The position numbers were made by a program, and so were the translations under genes. The notes beneath the pieces were generated by a model. The model saw only the letters and a list, made by a program, of their open reading frames with translations, made no database searches and had not been told where the DNA came from. Below are positions 4,512-10,368 of a stretch of DNA of 32,000 bases, piece by piece (the stretch's first letter is position 1; the number at the start of each line of letters is the position of its first letter). Origin of the DNA: Ureibacillus yapensis (lineage in GTDB: Bacteria > Bacillota > Bacilli > Bacillales_A > Planococcaceae); assembly GCF_003515775.1 (NCBI RefSeq), contig NZ_QWEI01000009.1, forward strand, positions 73,381 through 105,380. The letters run 5' to 3'.

Positions 4512-4677
4512 TCTAAAAAGAACCTCCCTCTATGAATTCAATCATTACACTAAACCATTAAAACAATTTATATTTTTTAATTACGTTGGATGACTTAAAG
4601 TATATTATATATTTTCACAAACTCTTAAAATTTAGGATGAGATAATTTTCTTTGGAGAAGATGCTCCACAATCTCCC

Positions 4678-4747
4678 TCTTTTCATGAAGAAAGTACGCT
4701 TTCCTAATTTCAGAAAAGCGCCCTTTTATGGAATAACTAAATTTGTT
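4678..4747 (-). repeat. dispersed hairpin repeat, long form with alternative right end
   Basis: acaatctccctc-ttttcatgaagaaagta-CGCTTTCC-taatttca-GAAAAGCG-ccc-ttttatggaataac. Confidence 0.75.
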
Positions 4748-4796
4748 CTCATTAATAAAACCAATTATTTCATCAAATTACCGGTACTTCGAGATT

Positions 4797-4832
4797 AAGA
4801 AAAAGGCGACAACTATTATTTAGCTGTCGCCC
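4797..4832 (-). terminator. intrinsic terminator of the SEDS gene
   Basis: Minus strand reads GGCGACAGCT-aaataat-AGTTGTCGCC followed by TTTTCTT. Sits 30 nt after the stop codon. Confidence 0.8.
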
Positions 4833-4859
4833 TTTTTATCATCATTCTGATTTTTGACT

Positions 4860-6194
4860 TTAAATGTTTATATCATCTGCTATCGTTGGTTCCACAATAT
4901 CCTTTCTTCGATAAACATTTAAAATGAACCCTAAAACAGCAGCATAAAAAAGGATTGCACTTCCTCCATAACTAATAAATGGCAGGGAAACTTCCATGAT
5001 GGGCACGATTCCAAAGGCCATCAATATATTCCAAGTAGTAGGAACGGCAAATAATACAGAACCACCGATTACGATTAATCTCCCATAAAGATCTTTTGTT
5101 TTAAATGCATTTTTTGAGATTCTTAAAATAAAAATCAGCAGAACCAAGCAAAGACCGATTCCGAATGTCCAACCAAGAGAATAGACGAGGAAGGGGAAAG
5201 CAAAATCTGTATGTGATTCTGGCAACAATTGAAATTTCAAATCATTATTAAGCCCGTTACCGAACCATCCCGCTTCTGCAAGTACATTCCTAACGACCAT
5301 ATACATATATCCGGCTCCATTTGGATCGGCATTTGGGTTTATAAAAGTAGATAATCTAGTAAGAAAATAACTTTGGTGTGAGGTCGTAGTAATAATGATA
5401 ATGATGAAGATGATACCAGCCACTAGATTTGATACGACTAGGTTGATAGCTAATTTCTTATGAACACGTGCAAATGTAAACATTCCTAGTAAACAGAAAA
5501 AGTAAATGACCCCAACCATAAAGTTTGGCACTATCATGTAGAGCAATATGGGAATCCAAAATAAAACAAGAAGAAATCCTTGTTTTTTCCAACTGCGAAA
5601 CTCATTTATTTTGTTAAAAATACCGGCCCAAGCCAGGAAAAAGAAAAATAAACTCAATATAGTGCCATCGACCGTTAGGCCTGGAAGTGAAATCCATCTT
5701 TTTGCTCCGTTGACCGTATATCCAAATAAATAGAGATATACGTGAATGAACAAGCCGATAGCATAAAAGTGCATCCACCAATTCTTTGATTTTTGATAAT
5801 TAAAGGAAAGAAACCCAATAATCACAAGAGCAGCTAAGGAGTACCAGATAGCTTGTCTCCCCATAATATGGGTGATTGATGATGAAATCCCAGGAATTCC
5901 ACCAACTAACGGGAGAAAACTGATACTAGCAAAAATAACAAATAAAACAATTAGAATCCAATCCATTTTTGGCTTATGAAGGTGATTTAATTTCTCTCCA
6001 ATAATAAATGGATTTCCCATTTCTTGAATGGCCTTTTCTTCTGAATCTTCTTCAGAAAATCCTCTTTTTTTGTAAGATTGACTTAACTCTTGCAGATGAT
6101 GAGTAAGCTCTTTTTTTATCCTGTTGTGGGCCTCCGTAGATTTGACTTTGGAAGTGACTTTGCTTAAAAATTCTTCAAATTTGGGAGAACTCAT
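4860..6194 (-). CDS. SEDS-family (FtsW/RodA/SpoVE) protein with an N-terminal cytoplasmic helical domain (DUF1700/HAAS-like)
   Basis: C-terminal SLPFISYGGSAILF SEDS signature and about 10 TM segments. The first 75 aa or so (IKKELTHHLQEL...GFSEEDSEEKAIQEMGNP) match the helical prefix usually found beside PadR regulators. The ATG overlaps the upstream stop (ATGA). Confidence 0.85.
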   Translation of the reverse strand: MSSPKFEEFLSKVTSKVKSTEAHNRIKKELTHHLQELSQSYKKRGFSEEDSEEKAIQEMGNPFIIGEKLNHLHKPKMDWILIVLFVIFASISFLPLVGGIPGISSSITHIMGRQAIWYSLAALVIIGFLSFNYQKSKNWWMHFYAIGLFIHVYLYLFGYTVNGAKRWISLPGLTVDGTILSLFFFFLAWAGIFNKINEFRSWKKQGFLLVLFWIPILLYMIVPNFMVGVIYFFCLLGMFTFARVHKKLAINLVVSNLVAGIIFIIIIITTTSHQSYFLTRLSTFINPNADPNGAGYMYMVVRNVLAEAGWFGNGLNNDLKFQLLPESHTDFAFPFLVYSLGWTFGIGLCLVLLIFILRISKNAFKTKDLYGRLIVIGGSVLFAVPTTWNILMAFGIVPIMEVSLPFISYGGSAILFYAAVLGFILNVYRRKDIVEPTIADDINI

Positions 6195-6613
6195 AAAGAT
6201 GCCTCCGTTATGAAGGGATTAAGGGATAGTCCTTGTTTAGTGGTATCTTGTTTATAAGTAGCTAAGTATTTTTTACCTTTGGAGTTTAAAGAATAATATT
6301 TCTTGTTATTTATCCAATTTGAAGTAAGCATTTCTCTATTTTCTAATAGATGTAGCAGTGTATAAAGCTGCCCTTCATTTTTTTGGAAAGCACGTTCATT
6401 TTTTTGAAAAAGTTGGACAGAAATATTGTAGCCATCCTTTGATTCGTGCTGAACAGATTCTAATATAGCTATAATGGTTTCTGTATGAAATTGTGATTGC
6501 TGATTCGTACGAATGGCTTCACGCACGGCATTTTTTCTTTCATTAGAAAAAGAAAAATCCTTGAATATTGATTTTTCCATCGAACTCTTCAGGTTCTTAA
6601 ATGGATCATTCAT
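6191..6613 (-). CDS. PadR-like winged-helix protein with an N-terminal extension, in the position of an anti-sigma factor
   Basis: IIAILE..KDGYNISVQL..EGQLYTLLHLLENREMLTS..KKYYSLNSKGKKYL fits the PadR wHTH pattern. No TM segment and no Cys/His zinc motif. Coupled to both neighbouring genes. Confidence 0.7.
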   Translation of the reverse strand: MNDPFKNLKSSMEKSIFKDFSFSNERKNAVREAIRTNQQSQFHTETIIAILESVQHESKDGYNISVQLFQKNERAFQKNEGQLYTLLHLLENREMLTSNWINNKKYYSLNSKGKKYLATYKQDTTKQGLSLNPFITEASL

Positions 6614-6616
6614 CTC

Positions 6617-7168
6617 CTAAACCTCCTCTATCATCTTGTCTTTTAATAATTCCTTCGCACGCTTTAATCTCGTTTTTAATGTATTTATATTTACTGAAGT
6701 AATCTTGCTTATCTCTTTTAAAGACAGTTCTTCATAATAATGTAGAAATACGACTTCTCTGTACTTTAGAGGCAAATTCATGACGGCATTCGTTAAGCTA
6801 TTTTCTTCACTATGCTTGATAACCTCCTCTTCCACCTGTTTTGACTTAGAAGGAATATGGTCAAATACTTTATTGCTAAGCGTTATTTTGCGATAATGCC
6901 AGCTTCTTAAATAGTCCTTGCAGTGATTACTCGCAATGCGATATAGCCAAGTTTTTATTGTTGACTGCTGATTAAATTGATTTAATTTTTCATAACACTT
7001 TATAAATATCTCTTGTGCTAAATCTTCTGCTATGGTTCGGTTTTTTACATATGTATATACAAGATGCAGGATATCATCGCTGTATTCACGCATTAATTGA
7101 TCAATAATCTGCTCATGCTCATCCAGCATCATTTCATCTGTCACCGCCAATTGGTTTAGTTCATTCAT
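6617..7168 (-). CDS. ECF-type sigma-70 family RNA polymerase sigma factor
   Basis: Region 2 (DLAQEIFIKCYEKL...TWLYRIASNHCKDYLR) and region 4 (LSLKEISKITSVNINTLKTRLKRAKELL) are present. 183 aa. Confidence 0.9.
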   Translation of the reverse strand: MNELNQLAVTDEMMLDEHEQIIDQLMREYSDDILHLVYTYVKNRTIAEDLAQEIFIKCYEKLNQFNQQSTIKTWLYRIASNHCKDYLRSWHYRKITLSNKVFDHIPSKSKQVEEEVIKHSEENSLTNAVMNLPLKYREVVFLHYYEELSLKEISKITSVNINTLKTRLKRAKELLKDKMIEEV

Positions 7169-7195
7169 CTAGTTGTCACCCCCTCATATATCTTA

Positions 7196-7222
7196 GACGA
7201 AGCTACCCTTCATTCAGTTTGA
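7196..7222 (-). promoter_or_regulatory. candidate ECF-type (autoregulatory) promoter
   Basis: Minus strand reads TCAAAC-N17-CGTCTAA, about 25 nt upstream of the sigma ATG. This follows the AAC-N16/17-CGT architecture typical of Bacillus ECF promoters. Confidence 0.55.
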
Positions 7223-7265
7223 AAAAATATAATTTTTTTATGACCGTCTGTATTCTAGAGTATAA

Positions 7266-7300
7266 GTGGAAAAAGGAACAACCTCTTATCAGATTGTTCC
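7266..7300 (-). terminator. hairpin plus T-run, related to the short form of the repeat family
   Basis: Minus strand reads GGAACAATCTGATAAGAGGTTGTTCC followed by TTTTTCC. The arms carry the AACAATCTG / CAGATTGTT motif of the repeat termini. Confidence 0.5.
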
Positions 7301-7493
7301 AAAATGTTGTAGGTGGTAGGTTAGGTTGCTTTTAAGACTACTTATTCGACTAATGATCCCTTATTTCTCAGAAGGAACTGTAATTGCAACAGTTCTAATC
7401 AGAATTGCATATTGTTGTAAATCTGCATTTACCGTTACCAATTAGTTTAAGTGTAGACCTCCACAATATCTACTTTGCAAAATAATTGTTATT

Positions 7494-7558
7494 AAACAAT
7501 ATGGCCCTTTAGCTGAAGAAGGCACAATTCCTTTTCAAGAATTGCGCCCGAGTGTTGA
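7494..7558 (-). repeat. dispersed hairpin repeat, long form
   Basis: aaacaatatggccc-tttagctgaagaagg-CACAATTC-cttttcaa-GAATTGCG-cccgagtgttga. Lies 44 nt downstream of the stop of 7602..8336. Confidence 0.85.
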
Positions 7559-7601
7559 TTACAAAGATTCAAAATAATAAAGTGTTCCTGTTATAACCCC
7601 T

Positions 7602-8336
7602 TCATTCTCCTTCAACGATTTTTGCAAATTCATCAAGAGTTGTTGAATAATTGATATAAATCCGTGGCAAAAGATAGAGTTCGTCTTTTTTGCCCTTCTC
7701 AGAAAATAGTTCAGGTGTTGTCGTAAGTCCAAACAAATAGTATTTCTTCGTTTCTGCTACCACCTTATTATTGAAATTTCCGTAGGGGTACGCAAGAACA
7801 TTCACTGGTTTGCCCGTTATTTTTTGAATTTTATCTTTGGATTCTTTCAGTTCGTATTCATAATTGTTTATTTTCGTCAAATAAGGATGTGTAGCAGTAT
7901 GAGATTGAATTGAGATGATTCCCGAATCAGCCATCATTTTTAAATCCGATTTCGATAATCGGTTGGAGCGACCGATAAAGTCAGCAATAACAAAAATGGT
8001 ACCACTTGGTTTAAAACGGTCGGTTTTCAGTTTTTGAAAGATATCAAATGCATTGAGATTGTTTTTGTACCCATCATCAAAGGTAATGAAAATGGGTTTG
8101 TTTACTTTATCAATGTCTTGCCATCGATCAAAAGTTAATAATGTGAAGCCATGGTCTTTTAGATAAATCATTTGTTTCTCGAAATTTTTCGGTGTTACAT
8201 ATAACTCCTTAGCACCATGACCTTTAAATTCGTCAATTGAATGATATATTAAAATAGGTACTTTACGTTGAGCAGAAACTTGTGATGGAAGAATTAATAT
8301 AAGAAGACAAAGGAAAAACATTGCAACCTTTTTCAT
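7602..8336 (-). CDS. secreted polysaccharide deacetylase (NodB homology domain)
   Basis: Signal peptide MKKVAMFFLCLLILILPSQVSA, ITFDDGY motif and HTATHP motif. GAGGAG RBS. Confidence 0.9.
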   Translation of the reverse strand: MKKVAMFFLCLLILILPSQVSAQRKVPILIYHSIDEFKGHGAKELYVTPKNFEKQMIYLKDHGFTLLTFDRWQDIDKVNKPIFITFDDGYKNNLNAFDIFQKLKTDRFKPSGTIFVIADFIGRSNRLSKSDLKMMADSGIISIQSHTATHPYLTKINNYEYELKESKDKIQKITGKPVNVLAYPYGNFNNKVVAETKKYYLFGLTTTPELFSEKGKKDELYLLPRIYINYSTTLDEFAKIVEGE

Positions 8337-8545
8337 AAAACTCCTCGCTTTATATCTTTTTTTATTATTCTTTATTATCCCTCAAAAGCATGGGGCTATT
8401 CTGACTTCTCCCATAATACATTCCATCTACCATTGATCAAGTGTGACTTTAATAATCCTGCTCTTAAGTTTAATTCCTTCGACTAATCTCCAAAAATATA
8501 CTAGCATTACCATAAGTATTTTATTTTTCTTGATATTTTTCCTCT

Positions 8546-8610
8546 ATTAAATGGCTCTTAATTGAAAACAAGCGCTAATCCGTATTACAGAATCGCGCCC
8601 GATTGTTGAG
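8546..8610 (-). repeat. dispersed hairpin repeat, long form
   Basis: attaaatggctc-ttaattgaaaacaa-GCGCTAATC-cgtattaca-GAATCGCGC-ccgattgttgag. Confidence 0.85.
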
Positions 8611-8715
8611 GATTGTTATTGAACTAAAGCCTCCGTTACTTTAAGTACATCTTTTCACAATATCCTAAATTAAATTTTTTAAACTTACAGGAATTGGGTT
8701 AATCCGCTATATTTA

Positions 8716-8777: not shown

Positions 8778-9827
8778 TTAGTCTTCATGTTTCATAGACA
8801 TGGCAAGTCGCATCACCAGCCTTACAGGAGTTGCTGGGTTTTCCATTTGATTGACATCTCCAATAAAAAACATATCCTTTTCGGGATAGTAAAATGCTAA
8901 GGAACCTGTCGAACCAGAATGACCAATTAACTCACCTTTTCCCATAAAAAGAGTTGCAAGACCATTTAGTGGAACTCTCATATATCCAGCACCGTAATGA
9001 ATTGGAAGCATAGAAGCCTGCAACCTGTTATTTACTTTTAGTTCATGAAAAACAGTATTATTAAATAACTTTCCTTTAAAGAAAGACTTGATAAATACCA
9101 TTAATTCACGAGCCGTAGAAACACAACCGCCACTTGCGCGAATGCTCCTAAGTAATTTGGGACGGTATAAGGCAGTGTTCTTATAATAAACATACGGGAT
9201 AAAATCATCCTCATCTTTTGGGAGATAAGTATTTTTGAGTTCTAAAGGATCAAAAATTAATTGTCTATACACATCATCCAATGTTGAATTAGTAACCATT
9301 TCAATTATTTTTCCGAGGATTTCAAAGTTTATATTTGCGTAATGAGCTCTTTTTCCCATATCTGGTGCAAAGTGTGGTTTTATTTCCTTCGTCTTTATTA
9401 TGGTTTCATTAAAATCAATTTGCACATCCATATAAATAGCACGTTTTCTCGACTTATTGCTACCCTCCTCAATCACATCCCTCAATCCACTTGTATGAAA
9501 CAATAAGTTCGAGAGTGTAATTCTATTAGAATACTCTCGACCTTTGTATACGTGAAGGTTCCTTAATGTGTCTTTTTTTAAATATTTTGTTATTTCATCA
9601 TCCAGTGACAGTTTTCCCTGGTCTCTCAAAATAAAAATACAAGTGGTTGTGAACAGCTTTGTGATACTTGCAATAAAGAATGGCGTATCTACATTCTTAC
9701 CCCCGTACCCAAAACTGTATGAAACATCTCCATTGGAGTTTTCTACAAGAAGAACAGATTCATGTATTTGCTTTTTCTTTGTAACGTTTCCGAAAATTTT
9801 TTGGAATTTTTGTTTTTGAATTTCCAA
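8778..9827 (-). CDS. serine hydrolase, beta-lactamase/PBP4* family (class-C-like)
   Basis: SxxK (ASITK), YxN (YANIN) and HSG motifs. Start moved to a TTG 7 nt after GGGGGAGG, because the track start lies inside the SD. Confidence 0.85.
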   Translation of the reverse strand: MEIQKQKFQKIFGNVTKKKQIHESVLLVENSNGDVSYSFGYGGKNVDTPFFIASITKLFTTTCIFILRDQGKLSLDDEITKYLKKDTLRNLHVYKGREYSNRITLSNLLFHTSGLRDVIEEGSNKSRKRAIYMDVQIDFNETIIKTKEIKPHFAPDMGKRAHYANINFEILGKIIEMVTNSTLDDVYRQLIFDPLELKNTYLPKDEDDFIPYVYYKNTALYRPKLLRSIRASGGCVSTARELMVFIKSFFKGKLFNNTVFHELKVNNRLQASMLPIHYGAGYMRVPLNGLATLFMGKGELIGHSGSTGSLAFYYPEKDMFFIGDVNQMENPATPVRLVMRLAMSMKHED

Positions 9828-9860
9828 ATGGCTAACCTCCCCCAATGTTAATGTTATTCA

Positions 9861-9888
9861 TTACGATTTTGACTGATACCATTGTTCC
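9861..9888 (-). promoter_or_regulatory. weak ECF-like promoter candidate upstream of the serine hydrolase gene
   Basis: Minus strand reads GGAAC-N18-CGTAA. The spacer is one nt longer than in the sigma gene's own candidate promoter. Confidence 0.25.
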
Positions 9889-9949
9889 ATTAAATGGCCC
9901 TTTAATGAAAAAAGCACTTTCCTTATTTAAGGAAAGCGCCCTTTAATTT
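9889..9949 (-). repeat. dispersed hairpin repeat, long form (best-folding copy)
   Basis: attaaatggccc-tttaatgaaaaaag-CACTTTCC-ttatttaa-GGAAAGCG-ccc-tttaattt. Minus strand: GCGCUUUCC/GGAAAGUGC (9 bp, one G:U) then U6. Contains the stop codon of 9943..10368. Confidence 0.9.
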
Positions 9950-10368
9950 AATAAATCTAAAACCACTTCTGTAATCCTTTGCCTTAATACTAATTGAGCT
10001 TTTCTAGCTGTTATATTTAAGTCTTCAATATCTTCTGTTTGCTCTTCCCAAGATAATTTGGTTTCATTTTCTAATTTAACCACTTCATCCTCTATCCAAT
10101 TTCGATAATCCTTATAAATTTTTTCAGCTTTTAATTCGCTTCTGAATAGATTAGGTACCTGATAATGTAAACTGGCAAGCTGTTTTTGGAATTCTATTTC
10201 TCCTTGTTCATTTATCATTTTATTAAATTCAAAAAGTAGTTCTTCTATTAGTTTTTTAGGAAACTTTTCATGTTTCATTTTTTGTTCTAAGTTAGATACA
10301 GTAATTTCATCTAAATTATTATTCTTAATACTTAAAAAATCATTAAAGAATTTATTAAGCTTGCTCAC
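9943..10368 (-). CDS. hypothetical helical cytoplasmic protein
   Basis: ORF of about 141 aa. Start moved to a GTG 8 nt after GGGGAGG. No family recognised. Confidence 0.5.
   Translation of the reverse strand: MSKLNKFFNDFLSIKNNNLDEITVSNLEQKMKHEKFPKKLIEELLFEFNKMINEQGEIEFQKQLASLHYQVPNLFRSELKAEKIYKDYRNWIEDEVVKLENETKLSWEEQTEDIEDLNITARKAQLVLRQRITEVVLDLLN

Follow-up and report, generated by a model that had tools for sequence, protein, structure and literature searches.

How is an extracytoplasmic function (ECF) sigma factor kept silent when the gene behind it, in the usual place of an anti-sigma factor gene, encodes a PadR-like protein, and the gene behind that a membrane protein of the SEDS (FtsW/RodA/SpoVE) type? 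The question is raised by an operon in a 32,000-nucleotide stretch of the Ureibacillus yapensis genome (contig NZ_QWEI01000009.1, positions 73,381 to 105,380 of the forward strand), the whole of which is called the window here and to which positions refer. The operon is almost certainly the orthologue of sigC-lstR-lmo0421 of Listeria monocytogenes and hence a further copy of something already described; the addition made here is a proposed mechanism for the family. It appears narrowly probable that its second protein, LstR, is a hybrid in which a short anti-sigma module of the sigma C family is fused to a PadR winged helix re-used for docking, and that in one lineage a link between this PadR domain and a HAAS domain on a degenerate SEDS protein replaced a transmembrane helix and an outside sensor. 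The product would be a split anti-sigma factor, the sensor of which is a cell-wall-polymerase pseudoenzyme.

All three genes lie on the minus strand: the ECF sigma factor (7168..6617, 183 aa), LstR (6613..6191, 140 aa) and the SEDS-like protein (6194..4860, 444 aa). Just 3 nt (GAG) separate the sigma stop codon TAG (6619-6617) from the ATG of lstR at 6613, and the lstR and SEDS-like reading frames overlap as ATGA (6194-6191), which bears out the tight coupling noticed in a preliminary description of this DNA. The parts of the three proteins on which the argument turns are as follows.

6617..7168, minus strand: ECF sigma factor of the sigma C subfamily (NF006930, Pfam r2 and r4_2, 75% identity to L. 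monocytogenes SigC)
6479..6613, minus strand: LstR residues 1-45, conserved N-terminal extension of two helices, putative anti-sigma module
6194..6478, minus strand: LstR residues 46-140, short-type PadR winged helix and C-terminal helix, with a shortened wing
5961..6194, minus strand: SEDS-like protein residues 1-78, cytoplasmic HAAS / perm_prefix_1 domain with GxP motif (MGNP)
4902..5960, minus strand: SEDS-like protein residues 79-431, polytopic membrane domain, degenerate

The identity of the operon follows from several comparisons. The sigma factor matches Pfam Sigma70_r2 (59.8 bits) and r4_2 (53.7 bits) as well as the NCBIfam model NF006930, named 'sigma C', at 254.3 bits for a cut-off of 198, and LstR matches NF006931 (PRK09416 PadR type) at 146.7 bits for a cut-off of 112, over positions 1-133 and from residue 1. 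Both models go back to the sigC-lstR pair of L. monocytogenes. A protein search returned an L. monocytogenes LstR cluster that is 58% identical to LstR of the window over its full length, and comparison with the L. monocytogenes proteins gave 75% identity for the sigma factor, 58% for LstR and 53%, full length, for the SEDS-like protein against Lmo0421. The corresponding L. monocytogenes contig encodes a sigma factor of 182 aa, a PadR protein of 143 aa and a SEDS protein of 414 aa, then a divergent HAD hydrolase and, further on, pgdA; this stretch is the lmo0423-lmo0415 region. The two operons have in common three proteins in one order, a HAAS N-terminus on the SEDS-like protein, the same promoter and a patchy, island-like distribution. 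They differ in host, the window belonging to a spore former of the Ureibacillus group, and in insertion site, and the operon of the window is known from sequence. In addition, the SEDS-like protein of the window (444 aa) retains a loop running from RxxxFxNP to GYMY that Lmo0421 (414 aa) has lost.

The preliminary description knew of no functional work on such a three-part module, a statement that has to be withdrawn, as the same operon, consisting of sigC (lmo0423), lstR (lmo0422) and lmo0421, has been studied genetically in Listeria (Hauf et al. 2019, PMC6624303), and FtsW/RodA proteins with a HAAS domain and an accompanying PadR protein have been described (PMC11237479). An earlier genetic study of sigC-lstR-lmo0421 is cited in PMC6624303 (Zhang et al. 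2005, J Bacteriol 187:7243). Deletion of lstR in L. monocytogenes derepresses the operon about 140-fold, sigC promoter activity is fully sigC-dependent, and mutation of three leucines in the 'recognition' helix of LstR leads to full derepression, 77-145-fold; the authors interpret LstR as a repressor and call the contribution of sigma C to the control of its own operon not known (PMC6624303). Lmo0421 was left out of the study of Rismondo et al. as the weakest homologue, and RodA3 of L. monocytogenes is lmo2687, not Lmo0421.

The operon is sparsely distributed and strictly ordered. Of 401 evenly sampled genomes of the class, which represent 145 genera, 19 genomes from 11 genera have strong matches to the LstR model, as do about 13 of the 31 genomes of the window's own genus. 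The order sigma-LstR-SEDS is kept in every other locus compared, 109 in number (29/29 from whole-genome searches and 80/80 from a species collection of contigs), one apparent exception having been resolved as conforming; the survey of gene neighbourhoods that the preliminary description proposed thus came out in favour of the triad. The SEDS gene is broken in a few copies (loci L007, L055, L067, L088, L089 and L108).

One line of evidence for sigma factor control by LstR is its N-terminal extension. Conserved positions in this extension are M1, L8, K9, F17, F22 and I34, and no known family or structure was matched by it (Pfam at E <= 10; PDB sequences). Across 61 genomes, only the sigma-linked LstR copies match the LstR model from position 1, while the other PadR proteins that match it begin at position 24 or later, most of them at about 40-48. 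A profile of the extension, made from 42 sequences and scored against 1.84 billion representative proteins at E <= 0.001, gave 104 matches, comprising LstR-like proteins, fragments and 31 longer proteins of 158-618 aa. In these longer proteins the module occupies residues 1-40; behind it come basic residues, a single hydrophobic helix (about 45-75) and then varied C-terminal domains (BNR/Sortilin-like, LytR_cpsA_psr, DUF4309 and MucB_RseB-like). NCBI's LstR model matches the membrane proteins over positions 1-43 only, the LstR extension aligns with their N-termini gap-free over 36 residues, and the motif of about 40 residues that describes the module, M-[DE]-x-x-[LF]-x-x-L-[KR]-x(7)-[FY]-x(4)-F-x(11)-[IVL], is found in LstR of the window.

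In the sampled genomes, the gene of every one of the 18 membrane proteins with this N-module directly follows an ECF sigma gene and either abuts it or overlaps with it. The sigma factors beside them are 34-45% identical to that of the window, and for each of the six that were scanned the best NCBIfam model is sigma C. As predicted from sequence, the position and topology of these proteins are those of classical membrane anti-sigma factors, and the N-module is their sole cytoplasmic part. The outside domain of one of them (L134 1501-2274) is signal peptidase I-like (TIGR02227, 72.9 bits), and those of others are LCP (TagU-like), BNR or MucB/RseB-like; the joining of one N-module to so many unlike outside domains suggests a putative anti-sigma module that is combined with very varied sensors. 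The homology between LstR and sigma-adjacent membrane proteins in this module goes beyond the literature searched. In two loci (L161 2402-2938 and L162 153-689) a second ECF sigma factor, about 33% identical to that of the window, lies beside the pair of sigma factor and membrane anti-sigma-like protein.

In a tree of the sigma factors, 51 of the 52 that are linked to LstR form one supported clade (98/95), apart from 17 of the 18 with membrane partners, the two exceptions being long branches. Since the LstR-linked sigmas are thus grouped, a single swap of 'transmembrane helix plus sensor' for 'PadR domain' is plausible. With the SigW-RsiW and SigV-RsiV types of B. subtilis the operon shares a sigma gene followed by that of a negative regulator, an autoregulated promoter and, through the N-module, homology of LstR to the cytoplasmic N-terminus of membrane proteins beside sister sigmas. 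It differs from them in that LstR lacks a transmembrane helix, a zinc motif and the four-helix domain of class I anti-sigma factors, and in that the membrane and sensor parts are on a separate protein, with no regulated proteolysis implied. Another likeness is to group ECF265, for which the summary of Casas-Pastor 2021 in PMC8999054 gives no anti-sigma factor and a conserved PadR repressor. The window operon likewise has an ECF sigma factor, a conserved PadR-family neighbour and no recognisable anti-sigma factor; the difference is that its PadR neighbour is suggested to carry an anti-sigma module itself.

Structure prediction and covariation were also used. The sigma and lstR genes are in the same frame, and reading through the sigma stop codon gives a natural fusion, as it does in 10 orthologous loci, from which an 11-row alignment was made. 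For this fusion of 325 residues AlphaFold2 (AF2) returned a predicted local distance difference test (pLDDT) score of 70 and a predicted template modelling score of 0.57, with pLDDT 76-77 for LstR residues 6-35, compared with 53-65 for residues 1-40 when LstR was modelled alone from the same 11 rows. It is suggestive, at the level of the model, that the N-module gains confidence specifically with the sigma factor present. In Foldseek comparisons the sigma part of the fusion was closer to anti-sigma-bound closed forms (TM-score 0.71-0.78) than to holoenzyme forms (0.34-0.43), a result that is left out of the argument, since AF2 frequently models ECF sigmas closed even when they are free. Covariation, calculated as mutual information with average product correction over 101 triads (effective number of sequences 46), gave no separation: the presumed non-contacting pair of sigma and HAAS reached a maximum of 0.35, and the other pairs 0.39 and 0.41.

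The remainder of LstR is a PadR protein. Residues 50-118 match Pfam PadR at 43.8 bits, profile comparison hits over 40 PadR structures and aligns positions 45-134 to short PadR proteins, and the winged helix is modelled by AF2 at pLDDT 78-92. The wing has a gap of 4-5 residues where the short PadR structures carry a basic GGRRKYY. LstR contains no Cys and no hydrophobic segment, and the features of class I or zinc-binding anti-sigma factors that were looked for (HxxxCxxC, a four-helix domain of about 80 residues, a transmembrane anchor) are absent from it, as is any anti-sigma Pfam match. What the preliminary description had said of this gene, a product with a PadR winged helix and with neither transmembrane segment nor zinc anti-sigma motif, is accordingly upheld, and the profile searches that it called for also supported the ECF sigma factor, the HAAS-type N-terminus and the SEDS fold. 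In one LstR orthologue (177 aa, L115 2314-2847) the PadR wing is enlarged by a Ser-, Thr- and Lys-rich insertion of some 40 residues.

The SEDS-like protein combines a full-length fold with the loss of residues on which SEDS enzymes depend. FTSW_RODA_SPOVE (PF01098) is matched at 160.8 bits over residues 79-431 (model positions 5-354 of 356), and profile matches in the PDB are to RodA and FtsW. Scores against the NCBIfam equivalogs RodA, FtsW and SpoVE are 177.8, 147.6 and 119.8 bits for cut-offs of 336.7, 337.5 and 448.8, and the three canonical SEDS proteins of the same genome reach 294-314 bits on PF01098, against 161 for the SEDS-like protein. Aligned to E. coli RodA (8tj3), the protein keeps Trp102 (Trp167) and the catalytic Asp262 (Asp330, LPESHTDFAF being aligned to LPERHTDFIF); it has lost Gln111 (Asp176), Glu114 (Ile179), Lys117 (Leu182) and Asp159 (Asn224). 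None of 25 members of the family keeps Pro112, Glu114, Lys117 or Asp159 (E. coli RodA numbering), and six keep Gln111; the catalytic Asp of HTDF is kept in 16 and replaced by Asn, Ile or Thr in the other nine. The subclade without it (HTI, HTT, HTN; loci L006, L008-L012, L025, L029, L030 and L115) has the operon and the HAAS domain intact. In RodA, Asp262Ala is inactive and Asp159Val and Gln111Ala lower the activity, and the equivalents of Glu, Lys and Asp159 are required in vivo in SpoVE (Nygaard et al., PMC10449877). The loss of Gln111, Glu114, Lys117 and Asp159, together with that of the catalytic Asp in one subclade, goes beyond the literature searched. The earlier designation as a full SEDS protein is therefore right for the fold and not for the residues shown to be important in RodA and SpoVE. 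Compared with RodA, FtsW and SpoVE as systems, the protein belongs to the same family of ten-helix folds and has, in the window copy, the HTDF catalytic Asp and the Trp102 equivalent, but it scores at about half the equivalog cut-offs, lacks the four residues and a partner penicillin-binding protein (PBP) gene, carries an added HAAS domain, and has a Listeria orthologue without FtsW or RodA activity in vivo.

The N-terminus of the protein is of another kind. It matches NCBIfam perm_prefix_1 (NF038403) at 40.8 bits over residues 18-69 (cut-off 30), and Pfam PF22564 at 13.1 bits, below the gathering threshold of 27; in the N-termini of orthologues the PF22564 match is consistent (10/10) and likewise sub-threshold, at 26.7 bits or less. 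PF08006 (DUF1700, now named HAAS_TM) gave no match for it at E <= 10, so that of the DUF1700/HAAS-type module announced earlier, the HAAS/perm_prefix_1 part stands and the DUF1700 part does not. The GxP motif of the domain reads MGNP, with G60 and P62 invariant among orthologues, and conservation within the protein is highest in the HAAS domain, 20 of the first 79 residues being invariant. Conservation of the HAAS domain together with loss of the SEDS residues indicates that the signalling domain is under selection, which points to a sensor or anchor role for the SEDS-like domain. The HAAS domain was defined by Ravi et al. 2024 (PMC11237479), who report that it is obligately paired with PadR proteins and describe a class, for which the Listeria protein is cited, in which it is fused to FtsW/RodA/SpoVE. 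With such HAAS-PadR dyads (PMC11237479; e.g. Listeria LltR-Lmo0600) the operon has in common a multi-pass membrane protein that begins with a three-helix, GxP-containing HAAS domain, an adjacent stand-alone PadR gene and the FtsW/RodA fusion class listed there. The differences are that the PadR protein here bears a further module at its N-terminus, that its gene always comes after that of a dedicated ECF sigma factor, and that the system probably acts by controlling a sigma factor instead of binding an operator directly.

Where LstR acts can also be asked of the promoter, the elements of which are as follows.

7193..7220, minus strand: sigma C-type ECF promoter, AAAC-N16-TCGTCTAA, with the -35 AAAC at 7220-7217 and the -10 TCGTCTAA at 7200-7193
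7179..7185, minus strand: ribosome-binding site GAGGGGG, 10 nt before the sigma ATG
7275..7300, minus strand: terminator-like hairpin GGAACAATCT..AGGTTGTTCC with a TTTTT run behind it, ahead of the promoter
7251..7262, no strand given: small palindrome TATTCTAGAGTA, about 30 nt upstream of the -35, in close relatives only

The sequence AAACTGAATGAAGGGTAGCTTCGTCTA at 7220-7194 on the minus strand, upstream of the sigma gene, is a sigma C-type promoter match and the single occurrence of AAAC-N16-TCGTCTA in the window, for 0.05 expected by chance. The motif AAAC-N16-TCGTCTA(A) stands upstream of the sigma gene in 108 of the 109 related loci, the spacing between AAC and CGTC being N17 in 102 of these 108, and the L. 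monocytogenes promoter reads AAACC..TCGTCTAA, the same motif. The AAC-N17-CGTC promoter proposed before the operon in the preliminary description is in this way corroborated, while a second, weak ECF-like promoter proposed at 9861-9888 does not fit the sigma C consensus. In 61 non-redundant promoters, the positions conserved outside the searched pattern are A-21 (98%), T-1 (92%), T+4 and A+5 (100%) and A+6 (85%), and a G-rich ribosome-binding-site block is conserved at +17..+22. A search for operators was made with perfect 6-bp arms and spacers of 0-14 and with the information content of each column from -60 to +59, in 94 distinct promoter regions, of which 61 are non-redundant. No palindrome recurs at a fixed place among the 94, and in the 61 there is no conserved LstR operator, only the -35, the -10, the ribosome-binding site and their adjoining positions being conserved. 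The palindrome at 7251-7262 is the sole operator-like candidate at the promoter, and read-through into the operon is kept out by the hairpin at 7300-7275, which precedes the -35 by 55 nt.

A wider regulon was not apparent in the genome of the window, where AAAC-N15-17-TCGTCTA has 7 matches against 14 for the reversed control, only the operon's own falling in the window; this lack of enrichment is consistent with the Listeria sigma C driving only its own operon. One of the seven, AAACCTTTTAAATGACGCATTCGTCTA (G000:C23:257690-257716; L116 3191-3217 on the minus strand), is followed after about 40 nt by a gene for a 205-aa protein with an N-terminal hydrophobic segment and could be, to judge by the motif, a second sigma C target or the promoter of another ECF sigma factor.

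Taken as a whole, we lean towards the following mechanism, including its anti-sigma step. Sigma C would transcribe its own operon from AAAC-N16-TCGTCTAA in a positive loop, a dependence shown in Listeria, and LstR would hold the operon about 100-fold down, a repression likewise shown in Listeria. LstR would do so probably as chiefly a soluble anti-sigma factor and not as an operator-bound repressor, its two-helix N-module of 45 residues binding sigma C as the module may do in the single-pass membrane proteins encoded after sister sigmas. The PadR winged helix would dock on the cytoplasmic HAAS domain, as the general pairing of HAAS and PadR suggests, and the SEDS-like domain would be a membrane sensor, perhaps of a lipid-linked cell-wall precursor or of the state of the synthesis machinery, and no working polymerase. 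A signal-dependent change in the HAAS domain would then capture or reshape LstR, so that sigma C is freed, and tight translational coupling would re-make the three proteins in proportion and thereby reset the switch. The preliminary description had already placed a SEDS protein as sensor or anchor, a PadR-like adaptor and an ECF sigma factor in such a chain; comparative support for it comes from the triad in 109 loci and from the N-module that the adaptor has in common with membrane anti-sigma-like proteins, while we infer the direct contacts, sigma C with LstR and LstR with HAAS, from sequence comparison.

The published reading is that LstR is an ordinary PadR-type autorepressor bound to DNA at the sigC promoter, that sigma C is constitutively active and only amplifies, and that the HAAS domain titrates LstR off the DNA on a signal. 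The membership of LstR in Pfam PadR and NF006931, its retained PadR core residues, the small palindrome upstream of the -35, the ordinary DNA-binding autorepression by three other Listeria PadR proteins (LltR, LftR and LadR), the derepression of the lstR helix mutant and the release of PadR from DNA by HAAS that Ravi et al. (PMC11237479) propose are all in its favour. It leaves unexplained, however, the conserved N-terminal extension and the homology of this extension to sigma-adjacent membrane proteins, and it has to account for promoters without a conserved operator-like element outside the -35 and -10, for a terminator that abuts the promoter in many loci and leaves little space for an operator, and for a wing that is shortened and non-basic. 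The Listeria genetics fail to separate the two roles, fitting a repressor and an anti-sigma factor equally well, and the two are not exclusive. The homology of the module, the position of the membrane proteins beside sigma genes, the lack of a conserved operator and the unusual wing modestly favour the anti-sigma role of LstR, and repression from the DNA is regarded as possible though rather unlikely. Several further points weigh against the mechanism preferred here: nine antibiotics and several disinfectants did not induce the Listeria promoter (PMC6624303); the AF2 fusion is a covalent one with a linker of 2 residues, modelled from 11 sequences and without predicted aligned error or contacts; the anti-sigma role of the 18 module-sharing membrane proteins is itself read from their sequences and gene position; and the subclade of the window and Listeria retains the catalytic Asp, which leaves room for some enzymatic role.

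That last point bears on another proposal, in which the SEDS-like protein is the effector of the operon, a back-up, drug-resistant or modified-lipid II peptidoglycan polymerase made on demand, and the HAAS domain serves for feedback only. Hauf et al. raised this idea, together with an lmo0421 mutation in an L-form strain (PMC6624303), and it accords with the full-length SEDS fold and with the catalytic Asp and Trp102 equivalent of the window/Listeria subclade. It is nevertheless thought improbable, given that the equivalents of Gln111, Glu114, Lys117 and Asp159 are lost in the window, the last three in all 25 members, that nine members retain the operon without the catalytic Asp, that conservation is highest in the HAAS domain, and that no class B PBP gene travels with the operon among the loci compared; moreover, overproduced Lmo0421 substitutes for none of five FtsW/RodA proteins and leaves antibiotic sensitivity unchanged (PMC6624303). 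Mere adjacency of three genes without a joint function can be practically dismissed, being refuted by the conservation of order and coupling in 109 other loci from many genera, by the transfer of the genes together as a cassette and by their co-regulation in Listeria (PMC6624303).

The preferred mechanism, with all its parts on one short piece of DNA, concerns a unit that moves. The cassette and its downstream end are described by two further features.

4712..7558, minus strand: conserved cassette of about 2.8 kb, with promoter, three genes and flanking hairpins (BLASTN)
4696..4721, minus strand: terminator-like hairpin downstream of the SEDS-like gene, inside a repeat copy

Over a stretch of 2.5-2.85 kb (window ~4712-7558) the DNA is 96-98% identical by BLASTN to loci of other species, with such copies in strains labelled Ureibacillus, Psychrobacillus, Lysinibacillus, Sporosarcina and Bacillus (loci L035-L040 and L067), and the homology ends just outside the three genes, the flanks being unrelated. 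The cassette is a self-contained, laterally moving unit found at unrelated sites in many Bacilli, and such identity across species with unrelated flanks suggests its recent lateral transfer as a unit. This mobility fits the restriction of the operon to lineage II in Listeria. The copy at L067 is decayed, all three of its genes being fragmented. Copies of an intergenic repeat of about 40-75 nt, with the core ..AAAGCGCCCTTT(T/A)AT.., are present at 4665-4736, 7484-7561, 8523-8659 and 9866-9958; the repeat flanks the cassette on both sides, recurs nearby and in related genomes, and has no match in Rfam, a scan of the whole window with which also returned none.

The cell-wall enzymes that the preliminary description pointed to nearby are real, the NodB deacetylase (7602-8336) and the beta-lactamase-fold protein (8778-9845) being supported by Pfam, but they do not belong to the cassette: neither these two nor the NAD-binding protein was found beside it in any of 80 loci. 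The NodB-family deacetylase is the immediate upstream neighbour in the window, and in L. monocytogenes a different NodB-type protein, the peptidoglycan deacetylase pgdA, lies about 2 kb from the cassette (L117 7766-8432). As no NodB homologue was seen within 3 kb of the cassette in 80 other loci, this proximity in the two genomes is probably a coincidence.

If the mechanism is true, LstR would provide a new short anti-sigma domain and the first HAAS-PadR pair wired to a sigma factor, and the SEDS-like protein a case of a SEDS pseudoenzyme serving as envelope sensor. The control of the 'anti-sigma-less', PadR-associated ECF group would be explained, and the search for the inducer in Listeria lineage II would gain a guide. 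For the family as a whole, the homology of the N-module is a concrete hypothesis that can be tested cheaply.

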